Below are positions 165-11,528 of a stretch of 64,000 nucleotides of DNA, piece by piece. Position numbers and translations under genes: made by a program. Position 1 is the first letter of the stretch, and each line of letters starts with the position of its first letter. The DNA lies in NCBI GenBank assembly GCA_963662275.1, contig OY759316.1, positions 1,184,001 through 1,248,000 on the forward strand, read 5' to 3'. Below the pieces are notes generated by a model. That model saw nothing but the letters and a program-made list of their open reading frames with translations, did no database searches and was not told the DNA's origin. The DNA comes from Candidatus Cloacimonadales bacterium. GTDB taxonomy: Bacteria > Cloacimonadota > Cloacimonadia > Cloacimonadales > DAONDQ01.

Positions 165-1403
165 ATGCGGGAAGTAAGAAAATTAGAAAAGAATCAACTA
201 AAAGATGCACTGAGTATTGCTGCAAAAGCTTATCCCATGATGGGATTAACATCTGAGTTAAAACTACAGGAATTTGAAACAAGAATACTGGAGGATTTCA
301 ACCAGGAATCCGGTACATGGTATGGGCTTTTTGAAGATAGTATCTTACTGGGTTGCATGATATTGTATGACTTTGTAATTAACTATTATGGTCATGAGAT
401 CAAAGCAAAGGGCATTGGGGCAGTGGCTGTGGAATTCCTGCATAAGAAGCAGAAAGTATGCAAGGAACTGCTGCACTGGTATTTGGAATATTCTCTTAAG
501 CAGAAATATCCCCTTGCCATGCTGTATGCTTTCAAACCGGAGTTTTATTATAAAATGGGATTTGGATATGGTACAACCTGCTATAATTATGTTACCAAGC
601 CCAATCTGATACCTAAATCAAATGAAAACTATAAGATGGATTATCTCAATCAATCTGATGTCGATGATATCTTGGCTTTTTATCATGAGATTTATCAAGG
701 CATTCATGGAATGACCCCGAGAAAAGAGAAGAATATTGCTGCTTTATTAAAGACTCCCGGCTTGTATTTTGTCTGCTATCGGGAACAAGAAAAACTGACC
801 GCATTATTGGTTTTTCGCCTGATATCAAATGATTCTACTAACAATGAAACAGATATGGAATTAGACCTGCTATTTACAACTCCAATAGGACTTAAAGCTG
901 CTATGAACTTCCTAAACAGTCAATCTGACCAGGTGAGACAGATATCCATTTCTACTTTATACAAAGATTTCTTCTATAATTTCGCAGATATCCGGCATAT
1001 TGATCATAAGGTATTAAAACAACCAGGCTATCATCATACTTATGATGCCGGCATGGGCATTATGTATAGAAGCTTAAACTCGATAGAATTAATCACAAAA
1101 AGACCAAGTACATTAGATAACATCAAAATCCGATTTATCCTCAATGATTCTTTTGTGGAAGACTGCCCAAAGGATTTCGTCATGGAATGGAAAGCAGGCA
1201 AAGCCAGTTTATCTAAAAGCAAGAAATACGACCTCGAACTCAAGTTTGATGTCTCTGATTTCTCTTCCTGGATTCTGAATGCAATTGATATCACGACTCT
1301 CTATCAATATGGGTTGGTGGAGATATCAGATAAGAAATATATTCCTTTCTTGGAGCAGGCTTTCTATTATCAGCAGAAACCTACCTGCCTGGAAAGATTT
1401 TAG
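165..1403 (+). CDS. Eis-like GNAT acetyltransferase with C-terminal SCP2-like domain
   Basis: 412 aa; GIGAVAV..HKKQKV acetyl-CoA motif, LYAF..FYYKMGFG; length and C-terminal layout as in the Eis family; RBS AGGAG upstream. Confidence 0.8.
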   Translation: MREVRKLEKNQLKDALSIAAKAYPMMGLTSELKLQEFETRILEDFNQESGTWYGLFEDSILLGCMILYDFVINYYGHEIKAKGIGAVAVEFLHKKQKVCKELLHWYLEYSLKQKYPLAMLYAFKPEFYYKMGFGYGTTCYNYVTKPNLIPKSNENYKMDYLNQSDVDDILAFYHEIYQGIHGMTPRKEKNIAALLKTPGLYFVCYREQEKLTALLVFRLISNDSTNNETDMELDLLFTTPIGLKAAMNFLNSQSDQVRQISISTLYKDFFYNFADIRHIDHKVLKQPGYHHTYDAGMGIMYRSLNSIELITKRPSTLDNIKIRFILNDSFVEDCPKDFVMEWKAGKASLSKSKKYDLELKFDVSDFSSWILNAIDITTLYQYGLVEISDKKYIPFLEQAFYYQQKPTCLERF

Positions 1404-1404
1404 T

Positions 1405-1626
1405 CGTAGCACCTACTTCAGGAGGTAAATAATCGTAGCACTTACTTCAGTGGGTAATGTTTTTTGTGGCTACTGCTTCAGCATGTGGGTAATGTTCTTT
1501 AAGTCATTGTCGGCTCATTACAAAACAAGATAAATCATGTTGCCAAGTTACCTGAAGGAAACAACCACCAGATACTAAAACATCCTGAAATATGCGCTAC
1601 GTTACATCCTGAAGTAAGTAATACAC
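1405..1626. repeat. GTAG-type REP-like cluster (family D, CGTAGCACCTACTTCAGGAGGT) between convergent genes
   Basis: Direct copies at 1405 and 1434, inverted copies at 1581-1604 and 1605-1626; a related copy at 9450-9473. Confidence 0.65.
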
Positions 1627-1670
1627 CTCACTGGTGCCTGATACCTGGGTTGTGTAGCAATAGTACATAT

Positions 1671-2474
1671 TTACTCAATTTCTGCAGTTCTCAAAATACG
1701 GACAAGTTCCGACATCCCCTCCTTAAAATGACCAGAACTGAGATCAAACCATTGCAACTTACTCAAAACATGCTCTTCATGATTTGGTAGCAACTCCATA
1801 ATCTCGTTAAGATCAACTAGCGATACTAGCAAAATACTCTGTCGTTGTGATTTTTGTATCGTTCCAATTGAGTCGACTATTTCCTTAAGACAAAATGGGT
1901 TTTCAAAAAATGCTCTGTTGATCAGTAATAAAACGTAGCCATTTTGGATGAAATATTCTAAAGTCATTGCAATTGAGTTAATCCAATCAGATTTTGTATG
2001 ATTATCGTGATTGTAATAGATACTAAAACCTTCATGAGAGAGGTAATCAATTATTTGATGGGCTATTTCGATATCTTGATTTGAGTAGGATAGAAATATG
2101 GTTGCACGTTTTGATAAGCGAGTGAGTTTGTATTGTTCGAACTGAAGACCTCTTTCTAGATTAATTGTTTCAACAACCTTTCCTTCCTTTTCCATCGACT
2201 TTACTAAGTTCATTTCTCTCATAACAGACTTAGAACTCTGAGCATCTGGACTATCACAGATTAAAAACCATTCACGAGCTCTGATTTCACGTTCAATAAG
2301 TTTCCAAAGCAATTCATCATCTGATTCTGTATCCTCCATGCATTTGAGGTAGAATAATACAGGGTTGTGACCTAAACTTTCAAGTTCGTTTCTTATCTCA
2401 CGAACCTTCTCAATATCCTTATTTGAATGAGAAACGAATATCCAAGCTCCTGAACCATTGTTTGGTGTATTCAT
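1671..2474 (-). CDS. Tandem TIR-TIR domain protein
   Basis: Two TIR-like units: IFVSHSNKD...SKSVMRE and IFLSYSNQD...NPFCLKE, each with Glu at the catalytic position; RBS GGAG. Confidence 0.8.
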   Translation of the reverse strand: MNTPNNGSGAWIFVSHSNKDIEKVREIRNELESLGHNPVLFYLKCMEDTESDDELLWKLIEREIRAREWFLICDSPDAQSSKSVMREMNLVKSMEKEGKVVETINLERGLQFEQYKLTRLSKRATIFLSYSNQDIEIAHQIIDYLSHEGFSIYYNHDNHTKSDWINSIAMTLEYFIQNGYVLLLINRAFFENPFCLKEIVDSIGTIQKSQRQSILLVSLVDLNEIMELLPNHEEHVLSKLQWFDLSSGHFKEGMSELVRILRTAEIE

Positions 2475-2520
2475 TTCAAATCTCCAATATCTTCACTAAA
2501 ACATATCCTGCCTAACTATC

Positions 2521-2775
2521 TTACAAAAAAAAAGGACGGCATTTGTTGATTTCATCCAGGCATAGCTTCAGTGTTTCTTTGCGAGTATTCTGTTCTTCAT
2601 TAATCCCCCAGCGCAAATCTACTTCAGTCAATTCCACATGTCGTTCTCTGCAGAAGCTACGCAGTTCCGGCCAACAGTGGCTCATGAGTTCATTACGCTC
2701 TTCCATCATATCACGGAAGGTGGAAGAGACAAAGATACGGATACTACGGTTATCGGATTTCAGGTTATCTGGCAT
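2521..2775 (-). CDS. Short or truncated DUF4062 (TIR-like) protein, 84 aa, possibly a gene remnant
   Basis: IRIFVSSTFRDMMEER...VDLRWG...LCLDEINKCRPFF then stop right after a T9 run; strong RBS AAGGAGG before ATG 2775. Confidence 0.7.
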   Translation of the reverse strand: MPDNLKSDNRSIRIFVSSTFRDMMEERNELMSHCWPELRSFCRERHVELTEVDLRWGINEEQNTRKETLKLCLDEINKCRPFFL

Positions 2776-2799
2776 ATTGCCCTCCTTCAATGAATCGTA

Positions 2800-5556
2800 T
2801 TATTTCGGCTGAACAATCACAGTAACCTGCTCGGGGTTTTCCTTTATTTCAACTTGGAGTTTTGCCTTATCCTCTGTCGGTTTCTTAGATGTTGTAAGAT
2901 TAACCTCTTTTACCTTCTCTACTGTATAACCAGCTTCTGAAAGGAATTTAGGGATATTTTTCACTATTATTCTATCTTTATCCTTTTCTTCCTTAGAAAG
3001 TTCCGTTCTTCCCATCCTGGCAGCAATCCAAGGTTCAATGCCAGCCCATTCCTCCTCACTCATCACCCGCCAGGGAAGGAGGCAATTGTGATATAGTTTT
3101 TCCTCGTCTCTTACTTTGTTATATACCCAACCTCGACTGAGTTTGGATAAGCACCAGCGCCAGTGTTCCTTTTCTGCAAGAAACTCGATTTCTTCTTTGC
3201 TAAGACTAATGGATTTCTGATTAGCACGGGCTGGATAGAGAATGTAGCCAATTGATCGCAATTTCTCCACAATATCCTTCACATTTTGACGATTCTCTAT
3301 CTTGAAATCTTCTTTTAAACCTTCATAATCTTCGTTTGCCTTCGCTGAATTCACATTTGCACGATATACCGTGTGAACGCTTGCAGCAAGCTTTTCGAGC
3401 AATTCGTCCTTCAGCACCGGAGCTTGCACCAAAGCCAGGAACTCACGTCCATTCACATGGATATTCAATTGTTCTTCAGGAGGGAGGCAAGAACGCTCAT
3501 AATAGCCTTTTCCGTTTAATAAGCTGGAAGAAATGATAGACTCAATAGAACGTACCCCATGTTTATATTCGGAAATACAGAGAAAAGCATGAAGAACACC
3601 TGGATCGATCTTGACCTTATCAGTCTTTCCTTCCCGTTGAACGATCTTGGGTGCATGCCTGGTCAGTAATTCGCGAAGCAATATAGCTCTTCTAATGATA
3701 TAGTGAGAATCAGGAATGCCGTTCGTTGATAGAGGATTTGGACCAATAATATTGAGAAAGCCATGCAGACGACTTACGAAGTCAGGTCCTTTGACATTAC
3801 GGAATTCAGTGTTTGCTCTGCCTTTATCGAACTCAGTGATAGAACTTGCAGTACCACCTGCAAATACAAAGACAGCTTTACCGATATGATGAGTGACCTG
3901 TCCATCCTGGAATTCGCCATCCTGCATTGGGGAAAGAAAATAGCGAAGCCATTCTTTATCACCTGTGTCAAACTCATCCCAGAATACAAGAGGAATCTTT
4001 CCTGCCAATCCTATATCACGTACCTGGTGAAGTGCGCCTACCAATTCAGAAGAATCTCCAAACTGGGAGATATTAAAGGTGATATCGACTATTTTATCTT
4101 TCGCTATGGCACGTGCCACTTGTTTCACACCGAAAGATTTACCAGCACCAGGAGGTCCAAAGACAGCTAAACACAGGGGGCGATGTTTCGGTTCGCTGAC
4201 ATATTGCTTTATCAGGGCACTGATGCTTTGATATCCCTCGATTTCTCGACGATCTGCTGTTACAAAATCATTGAATATTCCTAAAGGTACATTCTTAAGT
4301 GCTGACTTGTATCCATCTGTCACAATCTGTTCAGCAATGGTTTCAAGACTGGGTTTGTCTTCGTCACCCAATACACCAGGCTGATCATACATCTCATCGA
4401 GAATTGTCCAGGTTCCGCTCCGATAACCAATTGGCAGGTGTAGAGGATCGAGATTCCTGACAGGATTCTGTACTTTAACTACAGATAAGTTCTCTTCGTT
4501 ATCTATCTGGGATGCTATCAAGTCTAATGGAAATACAGGTGGAGTGAGCTTGTCATTGCTTTTCTGCGGACCAAATCCTTCTTTTTGCAGATTTCTCATG
4601 GCATTCACACCACAACAGATCGCTGCGTTTAAGTCCGGAGCAGAGGATTTCATAAGCTCATTAACAACAGAAGCAGTTAAACAAACAGTATAACCTATCA
4701 TCATACCTGGATAGGGTTTTGCCCAAGTACCTTCATAATAATTTGGATCAAAGAATAACAGGCAATCCCAATCTTCAGGCTTGTTCTTCTTCAAAAGCAA
4801 GGCACCTTCCGGTCCGATGGAAACAATGACATAAGCACATTCAGACAAGCTGCTTACACATGGATTGTGGGTTAGTTCCCAAAACAAATCCTGAGCCATT
4901 CTCTCCCAGGAAAGTTCTCTGCTCACGTGGATGGAAGTACGGCGTAAATCTGTGAGTGTGAGTACCGCGATGGTTCGATCAGCATGATGTTTAACGATAT
5001 GATGCCATATTTTACCTTCTTTCATTTCCGCAACAGGACTGGCAGATTTGACAATAATCCAGCTTGGCTTTTTACCTTTTTGAATGGCTTTGGGCCATAA
5101 CTCCTGGTGATCTCTAAATCCTAAACCTGCATCATCAATAATGACAATATCTGCGGTTTCCGGGTTTTCGACAGGGGCAGTTATCTCACATGTATCTGGC
5201 GTATCACCGCCACAGAAACTGTCTAATCCAATGAATTCTGCAACTCTCCATACGAGATTATCCTTGTCTTTATCAGTCTTGTCTGAAGGTTCCCAAATGG
5301 CATAGGAATGATGGACTCTATGGTCATTGGGTAGCAGCGGTGTTGAAGGAAGTTCACTCTTTATTAAATGTATATCCATTCCCTTACTGGATTTGATTTC
5401 CTCAATCAAATCACTCAGCATGGCTGCACCACCAGATTGTAAACATGCCCGTGAAGTATCCACAGCATTCCATGCCTGACCACCGGTCTTTCCCTTCTTA
5501 ATCCGTGCAATGTTCCAATCTGCTGTGACATCACCCGTTATGATAATGTGTTTCAT
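2800..5556 (-). CDS. PfkB/ribokinase-like N-terminal domain + AAA+ ATPase + tandem RyR repeats
   Basis: IITGDVTADW, GGAA, IVIIDD, VSIGPEGALL (PfkB-like, GAGD absent); Walker A GPPGAGKS, Walker B VFWDEFD; RyR motif LAEKEHWRW..GWVY..RDEEKLYHNCLLPW..LSKEEKDKDR. Confidence 0.75.
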   Translation of the reverse strand: MKHIIITGDVTADWNIARIKKGKTGGQAWNAVDTSRACLQSGGAAMLSDLIEEIKSSKGMDIHLIKSELPSTPLLPNDHRVHHSYAIWEPSDKTDKDKDNLVWRVAEFIGLDSFCGGDTPDTCEITAPVENPETADIVIIDDAGLGFRDHQELWPKAIQKGKKPSWIIVKSASPVAEMKEGKIWHHIVKHHADRTIAVLTLTDLRRTSIHVSRELSWERMAQDLFWELTHNPCVSSLSECAYVIVSIGPEGALLLKKNKPEDWDCLLFFDPNYYEGTWAKPYPGMMIGYTVCLTASVVNELMKSSAPDLNAAICCGVNAMRNLQKEGFGPQKSNDKLTPPVFPLDLIASQIDNEENLSVVKVQNPVRNLDPLHLPIGYRSGTWTILDEMYDQPGVLGDEDKPSLETIAEQIVTDGYKSALKNVPLGIFNDFVTADRREIEGYQSISALIKQYVSEPKHRPLCLAVFGPPGAGKSFGVKQVARAIAKDKIVDITFNISQFGDSSELVGALHQVRDIGLAGKIPLVFWDEFDTGDKEWLRYFLSPMQDGEFQDGQVTHHIGKAVFVFAGGTASSITEFDKGRANTEFRNVKGPDFVSRLHGFLNIIGPNPLSTNGIPDSHYIIRRAILLRELLTRHAPKIVQREGKTDKVKIDPGVLHAFLCISEYKHGVRSIESIISSSLLNGKGYYERSCLPPEEQLNIHVNGREFLALVQAPVLKDELLEKLAASVHTVYRANVNSAKANEDYEGLKEDFKIENRQNVKDIVEKLRSIGYILYPARANQKSISLSKEEIEFLAEKEHWRWCLSKLSRGWVYNKVRDEEKLYHNCLLPWRVMSEEEWAGIEPWIAARMGRTELSKEEKDKDRIIVKNIPKFLSEAGYTVEKVKEVNLTTSKKPTEDKAKLQVEIKENPEQVTVIVQPK

Positions 5557-8500
5557 AATTGCTCCTTATAGCTATATCCATTAGAGTTAAGCAACTCGAT
5601 TATCTTTCTATATTCCTGAATATCTTTAGGAGAGAAAGACATCTCCATCTTTTTCATATCATGAATAATACCCGCTACTTTCAGATAATCATCTAGATAA
5701 TCGTTCATATTATGTTTTCTCTTAAACTGAGCGATTTTATAAAGATAAATCCATAAATCCCTTTGCCATTCTGCATTAGAAGAGTCTCTTTTAACCAATT
5801 TTTCAATAATTCTAAGAGCTGCTTTTTTATGATTCAATGCATATGAGACTTTATTCTGGCTCTCATAGATTTCGCTTGTTATTTCATAAAAAACAGATAA
5901 ATCCCTCTGATATTCTGTATTTCTTTTGCTAAATATAATTAGCTTTTTGATAATTTTCTTTGCAATTTTTAATTCAGATAAAGAATCAGTTAAGTTCCCC
6001 TTTTCAAGGAATATTTCGCCCAACCTTCCATGAATGAGTGCTAAATCATAAAGAGAATTGGGATTATCAGGAAAAGATGTAACCAAATTATCCCTAATTT
6101 TCATACATTCATGATATATTTCAAGAGCTTCTGATAGACTACTTCTGCCTAGTTCTTGGTGGATTCCGCCTATTTTCATATATAATACAGATAAACCTCG
6201 TTGCCAATCTGCATTCTTTATATCATACTTGAGAAGATTTTCATAGATCTTAATACCTGCTTGGTATTTGTTTTGCGCTTGACGGAGTTTTCCTTCTGCT
6301 CTTAGGACATCTCCCAATTTCTCGTAACTAATACATAGTCGCTTCTGCCAGGTAGTATTATCTGGTTCAGAATCCGTTAATCTAATCATTATTTTCAAAC
6401 TAAGCTCATAATCCTCATGTGCTCTGGCATGTTTACCCTGTTGAAGATAGATTTCACCTATATTTTGGAGCCAGTCAGATAGGTCACATTGCACTACTAA
6501 GTTATCAGGTTCAATTTCTGTAATATCCCGAATTATTTCTATAAACTCTTGGTATTCAGTCAGTGCAGCAGGTAAATTACCTTCTTTCCTAAATACTATT
6601 CCAACAAATTGATGGCTGATTGCTAAATTCTTCTTATATTCTATATTTTTAGGATCTAAATCAAATAATGTTTTTGCTATCGATAATCCTTCCTGAAATT
6701 CTTGTAAGGATTTTTGTAATTTTTCTTGTCTTAAAAAACATTTGCCAACTCTATTAAAGCTGATACATAGATCGGATTTGTACTGTAGACTATCGGATTC
6801 AGATTTTGCTAATTGCTTAGCAATCATGAGACCCTTCTGATGTTCTTTTAGAGCGTCTTTTAGGTTATTTTGATATTCATAAATATCCCCTATGTTTTGA
6901 TAGCTTACTGATAACTCGAAAAGGAATTTGTTTTCATTCGGATTAGATGCTACAAGTTCACTTCTTAATTTCTCACTCTCCTTACAATCATTTAGAGCTT
7001 TATTAGTATATCCCAAAGCCCAGTGTATTTTCCCAAGACGATCATAAACAACTGCTGAAAATCTTTGCCTCTTAGTACTATCTTGAGCTTTCTTCATTTG
7101 TATTAATTCTCTGAGGACACTTTCAAGTATTACTTCTCGTATTTTGAATCTGCCAGTATGATTTAGAACATCATCAAGGTCTTGCAGGAATAATTTGTAC
7201 AAATTATAATACATATCCTCCGATTTAAGCTTTTGATCTAATAATTCACAAACCCAGTACAAAGATAGATTATCTGAACAAGTTTCACCAGATAGCAAGT
7301 AATCCAGAAGTGTTTTAAGGGAAGCATCATTGCTTTGTTCGGGTTGGGATCCACTTAAGTATTCTGCAGCTCTTTTCTTATCATCTGCTGCAATTAAATG
7401 CCACATAGTCTCGCTGACATGAATAGGATCGTCGCTTTTCAGCCTTAAAAGGTGGTCGCAAATCAAAGAATGCAGAGCTTTATTCATTTCAGTATCTGAT
7501 TGAATAAGATTCAAGACTTTCTGGATATGATATACAGCAGCTTCCTGCATCTGCTGATGCATAAATTTCCATCTTCCACTACTTCCGCTTTGGATTAATT
7601 GTCCTCGCAAACCACGTCGAATTACTGCAAACTTCAATGGATCCCAAACGATAGACAGAGAATCTGAAAAAAGCACTTTAGCTGCATTTGGAAGCATGGT
7701 TTCAAAATCCATCTCCCGCCAACCTTGACGACTGACAGCAACCAAAGATACAATAGATGCAACCCATTCTGTTCCATAAGTCTTTTCTAAGCGAGTTAGT
7801 ATCCATTCATATAATGCGGATACATCTCCTGGCACATTATTCGCAAGATGTTCAGAAGGATCATAACCAGCTTTGTTAGCCAATGAATAATCATCTTCGT
7901 CCAATAAATTCAATTGCTCTAAGGCAAGGCTCAACCAAAGAGGATTCATAAAAGCTTTTTCTTCTTTAAAATCAAGCTTTGTTAGAATAATAGATTTTGC
8001 TCCAAAACTTACTTTACGGTGATAACGTTCATATATAGCAGTGATAATTTCTACAGCATTTTTTTCTGTAAGACCTTCAAGTTCAAATTCTAAAACTCCT
8101 GCCCATTGAGCTAAGCCATCTGCCGCTTCTCCTTCTATTGCAGTTGCGATGATCCTTGCATTCAGAGGCCAGGGACGTTTCAGCCAGGTCATGTGCAAAC
8201 CACGGGTAGTAGGATTAAACTGATTCAAGGCATCGATTAGTACCACCACACGCTTTTTCACAGAAGAACGACTCAGTAACGATGCGAAAGTATTATCTAA
8301 ATCTTCTTCTGTATATTTCTCAGATAGTGGATTGGTAATTTCCAAGAATGATGAAAGCTCTGTTATCCACCTGAGGAGCATGGAATCTACATCACCGGAC
8401 TGCGGAGTGATCCCTGCTGCATGGGATAAGTGAAGGATACTTTCATCTTGTTCAAATTCACGATACAGCTTAGCAAAGAGAGCGCTTTTTCCTGTCCCCG

Positions 8501-9401
8501 GTCCGGCAGTGATACATGCTCCCCAATCTGCTCCTTCCTTTGCTTCAGAGTATGCAAAAGTGCGGAGTTCGGAGAGAATATCTTCACGTCCTACAAAGTT
8601 CCTGCTGCGATCTTGAACGAAGTCTTCAATTGCCTGTCTTTCTTCTTCTTCCCAGGATTTGGGGACTTTCTGTTCAATATCTTTGGTCTCTTCATCCAGA
8701 ATCTTCCAGATCTCTCCTTGTACCCAAACACCCCAATCTTTCAGACTTGTTTCTGTGATATGCTCAGTTTGCTCATCCCATTCCAAAGTATATGGTCGTA
8801 CCTGCTTACAAAGCACAGGGTCATCCATAATCTTCTGTTTGAGAGCTTTAAGGTTTTTTGCTTTCTCACTTGCATTCACTTCTTTTGAATACTCTTCACT
8901 GTAGTCTTCTGCCTTTTCCTTAGGCATTCTAGCATAGGGGAGAGGTTTACGAAAGAGGAAAAGGGAATTGGTACGCAGCCATGGATCTTTTTTAATCAGA
9001 CCATACTCAATTTCGAGAGCCGTGACACTTTTCCCTTCTACTTCAAACTGAAAGCCTTTTTCATTTGCTGCAGCTTCCAACCGCTGTTTGGGAGGTGTCC
9101 AGCCATAGCGGTCACCGAGAAGCACTATTAATAGCGGACGGCTTTTATCTATTTCATCCAGGCATACTTTCAAGGTTAGAAGCTCACGTGCTTCAATATC
9201 TATTTCATTCGCAACTTCCACACCTTGTCTGAGGTCGATGGGCTCGAGTAAGACATGCCGTGCCCTCAAGCGTTCTGCCAGTTCAGGGAAGACAACCTTG
9301 TTGAGATGATCTCTTTCTGCCTGCATATCTTTGAATGTGGAGCTTAAGAAAACAGGACGGGATACCCAGGAAGTAAACGTGGAAGCTTCTTTCTCACTCA
9401 T
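5553..9401 (-). CDS. NLR-like STAND protein: DUF4062 + NACHT/AAA ATPase + TPR repeats
   Basis: VFLSSTFKDMQAER..LLGDRYGW..SVTALEIEYG (DUF4062); FVGRE, GPGTGKS, VLIDALNQ, NPLWL; about 9 TPR-like repeats of the type WQRxLSVxYxKIG; ATGA overlap with the next gene. Confidence 0.85.
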   Translation of the reverse strand: MSEKEASTFTSWVSRPVFLSSTFKDMQAERDHLNKVVFPELAERLRARHVLLEPIDLRQGVEVANEIDIEARELLTLKVCLDEIDKSRPLLIVLLGDRYGWTPPKQRLEAAANEKGFQFEVEGKSVTALEIEYGLIKKDPWLRTNSLFLFRKPLPYARMPKEKAEDYSEEYSKEVNASEKAKNLKALKQKIMDDPVLCKQVRPYTLEWDEQTEHITETSLKDWGVWVQGEIWKILDEETKDIEQKVPKSWEEEERQAIEDFVQDRSRNFVGREDILSELRTFAYSEAKEGADWGACITAGPGTGKSALFAKLYREFEQDESILHLSHAAGITPQSGDVDSMLLRWITELSSFLEITNPLSEKYTEEDLDNTFASLLSRSSVKKRVVVLIDALNQFNPTTRGLHMTWLKRPWPLNARIIATAIEGEAADGLAQWAGVLEFELEGLTEKNAVEIITAIYERYHRKVSFGAKSIILTKLDFKEEKAFMNPLWLSLALEQLNLLDEDDYSLANKAGYDPSEHLANNVPGDVSALYEWILTRLEKTYGTEWVASIVSLVAVSRQGWREMDFETMLPNAAKVLFSDSLSIVWDPLKFAVIRRGLRGQLIQSGSSGRWKFMHQQMQEAAVYHIQKVLNLIQSDTEMNKALHSLICDHLLRLKSDDPIHVSETMWHLIAADDKKRAAEYLSGSQPEQSNDASLKTLLDYLLSGETCSDNLSLYWVCELLDQKLKSEDMYYNLYKLFLQDLDDVLNHTGRFKIREVILESVLRELIQMKKAQDSTKRQRFSAVVYDRLGKIHWALGYTNKALNDCKESEKLRSELVASNPNENKFLFELSVSYQNIGDIYEYQNNLKDALKEHQKGLMIAKQLAKSESDSLQYKSDLCISFNRVGKCFLRQEKLQKSLQEFQEGLSIAKTLFDLDPKNIEYKKNLAISHQFVGIVFRKEGNLPAALTEYQEFIEIIRDITEIEPDNLVVQCDLSDWLQNIGEIYLQQGKHARAHEDYELSLKIMIRLTDSEPDNTTWQKRLCISYEKLGDVLRAEGKLRQAQNKYQAGIKIYENLLKYDIKNADWQRGLSVLYMKIGGIHQELGRSSLSEALEIYHECMKIRDNLVTSFPDNPNSLYDLALIHGRLGEIFLEKGNLTDSLSELKIAKKIIKKLIIFSKRNTEYQRDLSVFYEITSEIYESQNKVSYALNHKKAALRIIEKLVKRDSSNAEWQRDLWIYLYKIAQFKRKHNMNDYLDDYLKVAGIIHDMKKMEMSFSPKDIQEYRKIIELLNSNGYSYKEQL

Positions 9402-9474
9402 AACAGCTCCTTTTAAATCTAATACACAGGTGGATAATTAATATAAAAGTAACGTAGCGCATACTTTAGGATTG

Positions 9475-9605
9475 GATTCAGTAAGATCGGAATCTTACTC
9501 CACGACTTCTGAATGAATATTTATTGATTCAGTAAGATCGGAATCTTACTCCACGACTTCTGAATGAATATTTATTGATTCAGTAAGATCGGAATCTTAC
9601 TCCAC
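9475..9605. repeat. 51-bp tandem repeat (2.6 copies) containing a family A REP hairpin
   Basis: GATTCAGTAAGATCGGAATCTTACTCCACGACTTCTGAATGAATATTTATT starting at 9475, 9526 and 9577; hairpin AGTAAGAT-cgga-ATCTTACT. Confidence 0.95.
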
Positions 9606-9722
9606 AACGTTTCGAATATTTAAATACAGATGTCTTTTTAATGTATTGGAGAGATTGGTGTCAATGGTTTTATGAAGCAGAGCTGTCAGCTTACACTAAC
9701 AGCTCAGGTAAGAATTGAAGAA

Positions 9723-11528
9723 TCACTCGTCTTGTGAGAATATTACTACGGAGTATGGTCCAATGCTAATTTTTCCTGAAAATGGCAAATCATCGTATGG
9801 TATATCAGAAGTCTGCACATCGGGAGAGTGATGTGTTTCGAAGTTCGGGTCATATTTATAAGAATCGCTGTTAAATCTCATTTTCCATATTCCGGCTCGA
9901 GGAAATCCAATTACATAATCATCATGATCATGGTTATAATTCTTCAGATTAACAACAACAACGACGCTATCTTTTGGGCATTGTTCCATCCATCTATGAT
10001 AAGCGATAATCTTACTAGCATCTTCATAATGATACATATGCGTATATTGACCACCCAAGCCTTTTGTCACACCTGAAACATTTCTGCGTAATGCTATCAA
10101 ATCCTTATACATTCTGAATATTCCGTGTTCGTCTTCCAGCCTTGACCAGTCGATTGGGTCTCTATCCTGGAACCAGCGGTCTTCCAGAAATTCCTGACCT
10201 TGAAATATCATGGGAATACCGGGAGATGTCATAACAAGGGCACCACCTAAGGTTGAACGTTTCCTGGAAAACCAGTTGTCCACATTACCGGGCCAGATCT
10301 GTTCTGGAATACGTTTTTTACCATTTGCGACTTCATCATGCGATTCCGTGAAGATAATACGCCGAAAAGCATCTAAGTCGTAACGATATTGAATAGCATC
10401 ACAGACTGCCCCCAGGTCACGTGATGAATCATCTACATCAATGATAGCTTGCCTGATGGGTGCTACAAATTCAATGTCCCATTGCGCATCATAACCAGCC
10501 CCACCGATCTCTTCATTTTTGGTGACCCAGGCATTATTCTGCATTCCTTCAGCAATACTGATCTTACCCTGGAAACGTTTCTTAATCTCTTCATTGATCC
10601 ACTGCATCAAGCTCCAGCCGTTGGGAATATCATCTGCGCTATCTCCATCTCTACCGGCGATATTGCCTATGAAGGGAACTGCATCCCAACGCAAGCCATC
10701 TGCATGGAATTCCTCCAGCCACATCAATGCATTATCGCATAAATACTGTCTTACTTCACCACGACCATAATCGGGACGTGTATCTCCCCAGGGCGTAAAA
10801 GAACGGTTATCATTATAGAAGTATATCCCTCCTTTGCCATTTTCACTCCAACCATCAAATCTCCATAAATCCAGATCTTCCGGTCCAAAATGGTTGTAAA
10901 CAACATCCACGATAACGGCAATTCCATGCTCATGAGCAGCTTTAATAAATTGTTTGAAGGCATCAGGTCCGCCATAGATACTCTCTACAGCAAAAGGATG
11001 AGAAGGATTATAGCCCCACGAAAAGTCTTCTGGAAACTCTGCGATAGGCATAACTTCAATTGCATTGATACCTAATTTTTGCAGATAGTCCATTTTCTCT
11101 ATCGCACTGGTAAACGTTCCAGGCTTTCCTTCCTCTTTAACATGAAATGTTCCAATATGCAATTCATAAATCACAAGATCATTCCATGTGGGAATCGTAA
11201 AGCTATCATTACCCCAATCAAAGACATCAGGAGCATAGATGATACTATTACCGATTGAGTTAGTCACCTTCCTGGCATAAGGATCATTACGTGATAAAGT
11301 ACCCTCGGAACTTTCAATCAGAAATCTATATTCATCGCCTATCTTAGCTTTCAAAATTCTTGCTGACCATAAGTCGTTTCCTTCATTTTTCAATGGAGTT
11401 GAACCCCATTGATTGAAAGCTCCAGTGACAGATACTTTTTGAGCAAAAGGAGTCCAAACCCGAAAAGTGACTCCGGTTTTACCGGGAATTGCACCAAGAT
11501 ATTTTTTAGTTGCAGATCTATCTTGCAT
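9723..11528 (-). CDS. GH13 enzyme with CBM48 (branching enzyme / maltooligosyltrehalose trehalohydrolase-like)
   Basis: GVTFRVWTP, IYELHIGTF, SWGYNP, DVVYNH, DGLRWDAV, ESHDE, PMIFQGQE motifs. Confidence 0.85.
   Translation of the reverse strand: MQDRSATKKYLGAIPGKTGVTFRVWTPFAQKVSVTGAFNQWGSTPLKNEGNDLWSARILKAKIGDEYRFLIESSEGTLSRNDPYARKVTNSIGNSIIYAPDVFDWGNDSFTIPTWNDLVIYELHIGTFHVKEEGKPGTFTSAIEKMDYLQKLGINAIEVMPIAEFPEDFSWGYNPSHPFAVESIYGGPDAFKQFIKAAHEHGIAVIVDVVYNHFGPEDLDLWRFDGWSENGKGGIYFYNDNRSFTPWGDTRPDYGRGEVRQYLCDNALMWLEEFHADGLRWDAVPFIGNIAGRDGDSADDIPNGWSLMQWINEEIKKRFQGKISIAEGMQNNAWVTKNEEIGGAGYDAQWDIEFVAPIRQAIIDVDDSSRDLGAVCDAIQYRYDLDAFRRIIFTESHDEVANGKKRIPEQIWPGNVDNWFSRKRSTLGGALVMTSPGIPMIFQGQEFLEDRWFQDRDPIDWSRLEDEHGIFRMYKDLIALRRNVSGVTKGLGGQYTHMYHYEDASKIIAYHRWMEQCPKDSVVVVVNLKNYNHDHDDYVIGFPRAGIWKMRFNSDSYKYDPNFETHHSPDVQTSDIPYDDLPFSGKISIGPYSVVIFSQDE

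Follow-up and report, generated by a model that had tools for sequence, protein, structure and literature searches.

We analyzed a 64,000-nt window of contig OY759316.1 (GCA_963662275.1) from a Candidatus Cloacimonadales bacterium, in which an uninterrupted open reading frame (ORF) at positions 2800–5556 of the minus strand encodes a 918-residue protein, here termed the focal protein. It joins a ribokinase-like (PfkB-like) N-terminal domain to an AAA+ ATPase and two ryanodine receptor (RyR) repeats, and its gene belongs to a four-gene operon (window positions 1671–9401) whose other members carry TIR-type domains. Conservation is expressed as column counts over 42 homologs; a wider set comprises 52 N-terminal domain sequences, down to 23% identity. 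The features of the focal gene are as follows.

2800–5556, minus strand: focal gene, 918 aa, with a PfkB-like domain, an AAA+ ATPase and two RyR repeats (ORF list and translation).
4501–5556, minus strand: PfkB-fold domain without canonical catalytic motifs, residues 1 to ~352 (AlphaFold2 [AF2] model, Foldseek, VIA-align and hhalign).
4690–4707, minus strand: GMMIGY at the place of the GAGD anion hole and catalytic Asp, residues 284–289, directly before helix 289–303 (model secondary structure).
4285–4500, minus strand: linker and helical lead-in to the ATPase, residues 353–424, modeled partly at low confidence.
3421–4284, minus strand: AAA+ ATPase module, residues 425–712 (VIA-align and Foldseek).
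4135–4158, minus strand: Walker A, GPPGAGKS, residues 467–474 (G467, P469, G470, G472, K473 and S474 each 42/42).
3967–3987, minus strand: Walker B, VFWDEFD, residues 524–530 (D527 and E528 42/42).
3211–3420, minus strand: RyR repeat 1, degenerate, residues 713–782, with a central deletion, Tyr for Trp and Asn for Asp (hhalign and alignment with phage gp68).
2899–3210, minus strand: RyR repeat 2, canonical, residues 783–886, with an insertion of ~20 aa and the full set of cyclic ADP-ribose (cADPR)-binding residues (Pfam and gp68 mapping).
2803–2898, minus strand: Lys/Glu-rich C-terminal tail, residues 887–918, not conserved and predicted to be disordered.

The Pfam RyR model (PF02026) matched residues 779–836 of the focal protein with a score of 39 bits (gathering cut-off 27.4; E = 9.5e-10), and phmmer against the PDB aligned the focal RyR sequence with the R12 regions of RyR1–3 and with the Bacteroides RyR-like protein 3nrt. 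Profiles of repeat 1 (residues 712–782) and repeat 2 (residues 783–886) proved homologous by hhalign (Prob 98.7%, E = 3.9e-16), in agreement with an initial annotation, made from the sequence, which had described one degenerate and one canonical repeat. Two Pfam RyR stretches were present in all four homologs scanned.

What RyR domains of this kind can bind is known from small phage proteins. According to the available text of two preprints, the RyR-domain phage proteins RyDEP and RyR Tad bind or cleave 2′cADPR, 3′cADPR and cADPR (PMC13232231; 10.64898/2026.06.04.730250). The first of these (May 2026), in its accessible part, gives H75, W78, H100 and D117 as key residues of RyDEP and reports that six of eight phage RyR homologs bind 2′/3′cADPR-type signals, some as nanomolar sponges, with glycosidase and sponge types both represented (PMC13232231). 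The second (June 2026), again in the part available, shows gp68 of a Pectobacterium phage (“RyR Tad”) crystallized with 3′cADPR, and finds binding to be ~100-fold weaker in the mutants H129A/W132A, H154A/K147A and K170A/D171A (10.64898/2026.06.04.730250). We took the gp68 sequence from a phage collection (entry L105) and aligned it with both repeats of the focal protein. The gp68 ligand positions H129, W132, K147, H154, K170 and D171 correspond to H798, W801, R816, H823, K860 and D861 of repeat 2, and most of these are strongly conserved among the homologs (H798 42/42, W801 40/42, K860 38/42, D861 40/42; H823 is His in 27 and Asn in 15). From the same set repeat 1 retains the His alone (H728), the remainder reading Y731, a deletion and E754/N755. 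A tblastn search of phages with repeat 2 returned one weak match; phage gp68 was reached via a stand-alone RyR protein at another locus of the family (L019).

At the opposite end of the protein, residues 1–360 were folded with AF2 on an alignment of 41 homologs, giving a model with a mean predicted local distance difference test score (pLDDT) of 92 and a predicted template-modeling score of 0.92. Foldseek against the PDB returned 320 matches to this model at E ≤0.001, the top ones all PfkB-family kinases and the best the Arabidopsis pseudouridine kinase 7c1x (E = 2.3e-9). VIA-align superposed the domain on 7c1x_A with Z 19.6 (root mean square deviation 4.2, 284 residues aligned) and on E. coli ribokinase 1rkd with Z 18.0. 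Since the structural matches span residues 1–358, the predicted fold is ribokinase-like, β-sheet lid included, which upholds the assignment that the initial annotation had made for the N-terminal ~350 residues; no other fold took precedence in these comparisons. The kinship with PfkB kinases is nearly invisible in sequence and was detected by fold comparison and hhalign alone. Pfam and NCBIfam gave no match on residues 1–360, with nothing from PF00294 at E up to 0.01, and when PDB sequences were searched with a profile of the 52 N-terminal domain sequences, no PfkB chain was retrieved at E ≤10, the best hits being chance matches at E ≥0.22. Aligned by hhalign with 24 true PfkB kinases from related genomes, the profile scored Prob 54% and E = 1.3e-4 over 294 columns.

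The PfkB motifs listed in the initial annotation (GDV..D, GGAA, VIIDD, VSIG.EGA and GMMIGY) were all located within residues 8–289, as GDVTAD (8–13), GGAA (42–45), VIIDD (138–142), VSIGPEGA (245–252) and GMMIGY (284–289), and the hhalign alignment and the secondary structure of the model agree on which PfkB motifs are kept and which are lost. Kept are the substrate-Asp motif GDxxxD, to which hhalign aligns GDVTAD13 (D13 42/42), the GG hinge, with G42–G43 over GGAAN (G43 42/42), and the acidic pair after strand 5 (D141–D142, 42/42); the TxGxxG strand of PfkB kinases aligns with SxGxxG. The NxxE motif, which serves in Mg-ATP and phosphate handling, is replaced by (T/N)DLR, with R205 in 42/42 homologs and invariant in the 52 sequences. 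At the GAGD position the helix N terminus carries G288–Y289 (G284 42/42, G288 42/42, Y289 39/42), just where the initial annotation had placed GMMIGY. The residue at position 289 ranges over Y, N, T, A, K, C, L, G, S, F and D across the 52 sequences; because it varies in this way down to 23% identity, there is no selection for a base there.

Before the GAGD-position helix lies an insertion of ~14 residues that holds Glu275 (52/52) and a nearly invariant Asp270. In the hhalign register the FDPxxxEG of this insertion is laid over the FDvSGAGD of PfkB kinases, which gives E275–G276, and in both registers (the helix, G288–Y289, and hhalign, E275–G276) the Asp at the base position is absent. The cleft carries many invariant polar residues throughout the 52 sequences (D9, R104, D142, R205, S216, E218 and E275), and their conservation indicates a working site, though not a canonical kinase site. 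With Glu275 invariant in the inserted loop, a noncanonical catalytic activity of the N-terminal domain is possible. As a side observation, three RyR-less relatives of Syntrophomonas type (L060, L071 and L077, each a fusion of PfkB-like, AAA+ and SLOG domains) have an Asp at position 289, reading GQMIGD or GQIIGD, and retain the invariant Arg at the place of the NxxE Glu; they may represent a less degenerate branch.

Residues 361–918 were folded with the same homologs (pLDDT 84), with low values in the first 40 residues (47–59) and in the C-terminal tail (42–48), which is missing from most homologs. Model residues 65–352, corresponding to protein residues 425–712, were predicted to form an AAA+ α/β core with a helical lid. 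By VIA-align their best structural matches (Z 13.6–15.1) were FleQ (15.1; 7ejw_D, 223 residues aligned), NtrC1 (14.9; 1ny5_B), ClpA (1r6b) and Skd3 (both 14.7), and PspF, and Foldseek matched the C-terminal model with ORC/Cdc6, FtsH, RFC, Skd3 and Vps4, so that no single AAA+ clade is favored; Pfam AAA models gave weak, subthreshold matches alone. Both Walker motifs are invariant in the 42 homologs, consistent with the initial annotation, which had noted both as intact. R596 (in DFVSRL) and R669 (in HGVRS) are likewise invariant and are candidates for the arginine finger and sensor 2; we take these two segments to resemble the corresponding regions of AAA+ proteins of the bacterial enhancer-binding protein (bEBP) and Clp types. 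The NCBIfam scan of the focal protein gave no useful match, and among PADLOC models there were weak matches to DolB (E = 9.8e-5) and mad8 alone.

The remaining genes of the operon are the following.

5553–9401, minus strand: upstream gene, 1282 aa, with DUF4062 (TIR-like), a STAND NTPase and TPR repeats (Pfam).
2521–2775, minus strand: 84-aa ORF, the N-terminal half of a DUF4062 domain (Pfam DUF4062, E = 6e-9).
1671–2474, minus strand: downstream TIR–TIR gene, 267 aa (Pfam TIR_2, E = 3.2e-23, two stretches).

The end of the upstream gene and the focal gene overlap by four bases. Its product, in which Pfam recognizes DUF4062, a STAND-type NTPase (AAA_16, NPHP3_N) and TPR repeats, is a putative NLR-like sensor, and the pairing of such a gene with the focal gene recurs in nine other loci. 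In the whole 4.38-Mb genome there are three TIR_2 and two DUF4062 matches, of which four of the five lie inside the operon; the sole TIR_2 match outside it falls in an 817-aa open frame ~330 kb away (G000:C1:1518040–1518366). The presence of TIR genes on both sides of the focal gene is far beyond chance. The operon is flanked by ordinary genes, identified by Pfam as a GNAT acetyltransferase, a GlgB-like amylase and an ABC transporter. The GNAT and amylase genes were also not found in the same-genus genome G001 when synteny was compared, and the borders of an island therefore cannot be drawn.

G+C content is 0.42–0.43 across the focal gene and 0.33–0.37 to either side. Within the upstream gene, the 3′ two-thirds encoding the TPR region (window positions 5001–7500) have a G+C of 0.33–0.37, markedly below that of the 5′ part and the focal gene (0.42–0.43), perhaps as a result of recombination or fast evolution in this sensor region. 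The 84-aa ORF has a strong ribosome-binding site and terminates within a run of nine T, at the exact point where the full DUF4062 domain of the upstream protein carries on; it may have been left over by truncation, be subject to phase variation or serve as a decoy. A promoter and terminator scan of positions 1350–9800 found 22 and 5 sites, respectively, with 22.6 and 5.4 in shuffled controls; as the counts show no excess, they are uninformative on the operon.

A word-indexed search with the focal protein found at least 925 proteins at E ≤0.001 among 8000 candidates scored. The best 120 are nearly all full length at 42–65% identity and are named only “RyR domain-containing protein,” “ATPase” or “AAA family ATPase.” In an exhaustive profile search, the N-terminal domain alone matched 2438 representatives of 50%-identity clusters at E ≤0.001, 1057 of them at E ≤1e-30. 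Among the best 150 of these matches there were no ordinary kinases, and the domain begins within the first 50 residues, barring fragments, split matches and P0248 (1262 aa; domain start at residue 353). Relatives are spread over Chloroflexota, Acidobacteriota, Planctomycetota, Gemmatimonadota, Chlorobi, Actinomycetota, Bacillota, Pseudomonadota, Bacteroidota and methanogenic archaea, and the entire PfkB-like/AAA+/RyR architecture is conserved across many phyla at 42–65% identity. Among 41 genomes of the same order the gene was found in its own genome only, and not even in a same-genus genome at 99% completeness. It is thus an accessory gene, with a distribution unlike that of a housekeeping function.

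To survey neighborhoods we fetched 80 loci and dropped six short or partial ones (L005, L013, L051, L072, L074 and L076); ORFs were called greedily in the remaining 74, and in the 67 with a definable focal ORF and at least one neighbor, 217 ORFs, up to two per side, were scanned with Pfam. TIR_2 occurs within two ORFs of the focal gene in 16 loci and DUF4062 in nine, a union of 24/67 loci from many phyla, and the homolog P0118 carries a fused C-terminal TIR domain. When 17 TIR domains beside family members were aligned, the invariant residues were the Phe of FxSY and a single Glu, which is present in both domains of the TIR–TIR protein in the window. We take this Glu to be the catalytic one of the TIR NADase literature. 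Other neighbors in family loci encode NUDIX, SLATT_1 and RelA/SpoT–TPR proteins.

Commoner than the TIR genes is a partner of ~190 aa with the motifs GVTGHR, SPLAEGADR and WDG..GGT. A hidden Markov model (HMM) of this domain found it in 42/74 loci (for example L012:12139–12693, L002:12641–13267 and L064:12119–12769): within or overlapping the focal frame in nine, within 700 bases in 28 and at 1.2–4.5 kb in five. Pfam gave subthreshold matches to YpsA (the best, E = 0.003), YAcAr and DprA. By hhalign the domain matched a Pfam-verified YpsA protein at Prob 93% (E = 3.4e-7), a comparison with a single sequence, one of 61 genomes related to a locus genome having supplied one. ESM-Atlas leads were YpsA SLOG clusters by features (0.86–0.89) and, by structure, proteins fused to SLATT, DUF4231 or NUDIX; the profile found nothing meaningful among PDB sequences. 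On the strength of the YpsA alignment and the Atlas leads we call the domain SLOG-like, of the YpsA-like family. It takes the place of the C-terminal RyR repeats on the PfkB-like/AAA+ protein in L053, L060, L064, L071 and L077 and follows the RyR repeats in L041 and L044. The SLOG-like family thus occurs alone, fused to the PfkB-like/AAA+ core or, as seen in L008, L015 and L017, fused to SLATT-like membrane regions. RyR is present on the focal protein in 58/74 loci. Of the 16 loci without it, 11 carry a SLOG-like domain in fusion or alongside; one or the other is thus found in 69/74 loci. The PfkB-like/AAA+ core is therefore nearly always accompanied by a module of a type known or likely to bind nucleotides derived from ADP-ribose (ADPR), and often by TIR domains, the enzymes that make such nucleotides.

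Additional RyR-tagged proteins are encoded in 15/74 loci, among them the following.

L002:13264–15096, L003:7672–9504, L016:13383–15140, L038:13155–15146, L043:12582–14339 and L067:8636–10591: TrkA_N/RCK–RyR proteins.
L049:12712–14694: RyR on a TIR protein.
L073:7148–9682, minus strand: RyR on a nucleotide synthetase of RelA/SpoT type.
L019:9680–9964 and L022:9676–9963: stand-alone RyR proteins of 94–95 aa.

The first group comprises proteins of ~600 aa adjoining family members, with two transmembrane (TM) helices, a pore-helix-like TLQLVT(L/M)(E/N)SG segment, TrkA_N (RCK) and C-terminal RyR repeats. From their sequences they look like ion channels tagged with the ligand pocket of RyR, and so offer a striking analogy with the ryanodine receptors of animals. 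The occurrence of RyR on channel-like TrkA_N, TIR and RelA/SpoT proteins fits sensor domains placed on interchangeable effectors. A role of RyR as a homotypic adaptor was weighed as well, and was rejected as the principal explanation; the RyR-tagged proteins each have their own repeat pair, and the phage homologs bind ligand.

We propose that the focal protein is the signal-reading component of an undescribed TIR-based, Thoeris-like conflict operon, a proposal whose chances we judge to be even. The RyR module is the likely ADPR-signal sensor, ahead of the kinase-like pocket, because the phage relatives of RyR bind cADPR isomers, its ligand residues are conserved and it is exchanged for a SLOG-like domain in relatives. 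The initial annotation had instead given the sensing of ADPR-like products to the kinase-like pocket beside TIR enzymes. The link to TIR holds (24/67 loci); for the sensing role itself, the same three observations, including the binding of 2′cADPR, 3′cADPR and cADPR by phage relatives, shift the assignment from the pocket to RyR.

In such a system an invader would trigger the DUF4062–STAND–TPR protein, the TIR–TIR protein or both, and NAD+ would be converted to an ADPR-derived nucleotide. The tandem RyR module would bind this nucleotide in the pocket of repeat 2, as its conserved ligand residues suggest, and binding may in turn control the assembly or the ATP turnover of the intact AAA+ motor. 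The N-terminal ribokinase-fold domain would then act as a non-kinase output or adaptor, perhaps with a second site for a ribose ligand; this is the weakest step. In relatives, the PfkB-like/AAA+ core may read its signal via a SLOG-like domain, instead of or besides RyR. We infer, in particular, that the TIR proteins signal rather than merely deplete NAD+, that RyR binds their product, and the whole of the output.

Several points weigh against this proposal. The focal protein has no known cell-killing domain, which leaves the output unexplained, and the binding, signal and defense roles that we would give the operon are drawn from sequence and models. By analogy, the TIR proteins may act otherwise, as STAND-linked TIR domains often merely deplete NAD+; a Thoeris survey of December 2025, in its available text, discarded TIRs in Avs proteins, STAND-linked TIRs often being plain NAD+-depleting effectors (10.64898/2025.12.03.692087). 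There are 18/67 loci with no TIR/DUF4062 gene and no SLOG-like domain in the vicinity, and SLOG-like partners (42/74) outnumber TIR genes, so that TIR may not be the universal signal source; in the focal window, the HMM found no SLOG-like gene. The ligand could also differ. Animal RyR R12 domains bind ATP or ADP too, according to the accessible text of the June 2026 preprint (10.64898/2026.06.04.730250), and by analogy the ligand of the focal RyR could be an ordinary adenine nucleotide. Finally, the catalytic His and Asp of RyDEP are present in repeat 2, which could point to signal degradation instead of sensing.

Among other explanations, the one that survives best, though we consider it unlikely, is that the ribokinase-fold domain itself senses an ADPR-like TIR product through a ribose or ADP-sugar pocket, with the RyR repeats otherwise employed, for instance to sense adenine nucleotides or in dimer-like packing. 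The domain has kept its fold and the sugar-site elements D13, G42–G43 and D141–D142 and has lost the phosphotransfer residues, the many invariant polar cleft residues fit a working ligand site, and the PfkB-like/AAA+ core occurs beside TIR genes even without RyR (L050 and L064). The pocket is thus a possible sensor, but a second choice after RyR: with documented or probable binders of nucleotide signals attached or adjacent in 69/74 loci there is less need for a third sensor, and we know of no PfkB-fold domain that serves as a receptor for cADPR or ADPR.

Removal of a signal has a parallel in the ring nucleases of type III CRISPR. It is conceivable, if quite improbable, that the focal protein is likewise a regulator in which repeat 2, as a glycosidase or sponge, removes basal or spent cADPR-type signal and shields the cell from its own TIR enzymes. 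Equivalents of the RyDEP catalytic dyad are conserved (H798 and D861), phage homologs of both the glycosidase and sponge types are described in the available preprint text (PMC13232231), and the three TIR-type domains of the operon, with a truncated fourth, could be dangerous if leaky. A conserved PfkB-like/AAA+ body of 700 aa is, however, excessive for a hydrolase or sponge, the phage proteins being ~100–180 aa, and the substitution of RyR by a SLOG-like domain and the fusion of RyR to effector-like channel, TIR and RelA/SpoT proteins fit sensing better.

Less probable again is that the N-terminal domain is an active enzyme with noncanonical residues, such as E275 and D270, that makes or modifies a ribose-bearing nucleotide, for example by phosphorylating ADPR or a nucleoside. 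The conservation of E275 (52/52) and D270 would suit such an enzyme, as would the hhalign register of FDPxxxEG over FDvSGAGD, the Asp at position 289 in L060, L071 and L077, and the many loci without a TIR gene, which need another source of signal. That register comes with an hhalign probability of just 54%, however, and secondary structure puts the helix N terminus, the site of the anion hole, at GxIGY and not at EG. Moreover, the Glu of NxxE that holds Mg-ATP is replaced by the invariant R205, and Ala and Leu stand in the focal protein at the positions that we take to correspond to Lys43 and Asn46 in the GGKGAN motif of ribokinase. An ordinary housekeeping sugar kinase or metabolic ATPase with coincidental TIR neighbors is effectively excluded, despite the GNAT acetyltransferase, GlgB-like amylase and ABC transporter genes at the flanks, by the occurrence of the gene in 1/41 related genomes against 21/21 for true PfkB kinases, by the missing catalytic motifs and by the recurrence across phyla of its association with TIR, DUF4062, SLOG-like, SLATT, NUDIX and RelA/SpoT.

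If the RyR module reads the signal, it would constitute a new receptor class and, in a pseudo-kinase coupled to an AAA+ motor, a new output for TIR immunity; it would explain the RyR decoys of phages and provide a directly testable bacterial counterpart to the action of cADPR on the ryanodine receptors of animals, which has long been debated. The N-terminal domain is also a clean example of a ribokinase fold in a non-kinase role. A wider proposal, which we hold tentatively and think rather more apt to fail than to stand, is that host RyR domains are widespread unrecognized receptors for TIR- or SLOG-linked messengers of ADP-ribose type in bacteria and archaea, carried on interchangeable outputs (pseudo-kinase/AAA+, 2TM–RCK channel-like, TIR and RelA/SpoT). 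These receptors would be a prokaryotic forerunner of the animal cADPR/ryanodine receptor axis, and the PfkB-like domain a new, catalytically dead, ribose-recognizing module driven by an AAA+ motor.

In the literature we found no description of the PfkB-like/AAA+/RyR architecture. The words RyR, ryanodine, ribokinase, PfkB and DUF4062 are all absent from Kaur et al. 2020 (PMC7159879) and Iyer et al. 2022 (PMC9503650). The available text of the Thoeris survey gives 29 putative effector types, with types V–XI validated, and its main text, supplements aside, contains no RyR, AAA, ribokinase, PfkB or DUF4062 and a single “ryanodine,” which refers to animal channels (10.64898/2025.12.03.692087). Both RyR preprints, in the parts available, concern viral proteins, one of them terming PF02026 “previously uncharacterized” (PMC13232231; 10.64898/2026.06.04.730250), and neither addresses a cellular function of RyR in those parts; the family described here shows RyR domains as host components, encoded in cis with TIR genes, in thousands of bacterial and archaeal proteins.

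The closest known system is Thoeris, types I–XI, which pairs a ThsB TIR protein with a signal-activated effector. As in Thoeris, TIR genes stand beside a protein with a putative domain for ADPR-derived nucleotides, and both are accessory and patchy, with sensor modules interchangeable between loci. The focal family differs in its predicted receptor domain, RyR or, in relatives, SLOG-like, set on a PfkB-like/AAA+ body, and the TIR-type domains of the focal operon include a STAND/NLR-like protein, a class that the survey set aside in its available text. Thoeris is a phage defense, whereas the focal operon is known here from its genes alone. ThsA-type SLOG sensors and SLOG–SLATT modules were reportedly treated by Burroughs et al. 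in 2015 (in NAR). They have a counterpart in the YpsA-like SLOG domain that is a neighbor or fusion partner of the PfkB-like/AAA+ core in relatives, sometimes fused to SLATT-like membrane regions; unlike them, the SLOG-like domain of the family stays below Pfam thresholds, and the gene is missing from the focal window. The upstream gene resembles TIR–STAND (Avs/NLR-like) defense proteins in its TIR-like DUF4062, STAND NTPase and TPR sensor repeats. These proteins usually act alone, whereas the upstream gene is translationally coupled to the PfkB-like/AAA+/RyR gene.

With the phage proteins RyDEP (mycobacteriophage DyoEdafos) and RyR Tad (Pectobacterium phage vB_PatP_CB1 gp68) the focal protein has the PF02026 fold in common, and repeat 2 keeps their 3′cADPR-contact set of His/Trp, second His, Lys/Asp and a basic residue. 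The twofold RyR arrangement, a dimer in the phage proteins, would be achieved by a tandem repeat in the focal protein, whose repeat 1 has lost most ligand residues. The phage proteins are small viral anti-defense proteins that destroy or sequester a host signal, whereas the focal protein is encoded by the host, with TIR genes in cis, and joins RyR to an ATPase and a pseudo-kinase. Its N-terminal domain matches the PfkB kinases (E. coli RbsK 1rkd, Arabidopsis 7c1x and HldA/HldE) over the whole fold with lid (Z 18–19.6, 270–285 residues) and shares their GDxxxD substrate Asp, GG hinge and DD after strand 5. It departs from them in the change of the NxxE Glu to an invariant Arg and of GAGD to GxIGY, in the insert of ~14 residues with its invariant Glu, in the AAA+ fusion and in its accessory distribution. 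The ATPase module resembles bEBPs and AAA+ proteins of the Clp/Hsp100 D2 type in its fold and intact Walker A and B motifs, but the focal protein is without the σ54 interaction loop, DNA-binding domain and protease partner of those proteins.

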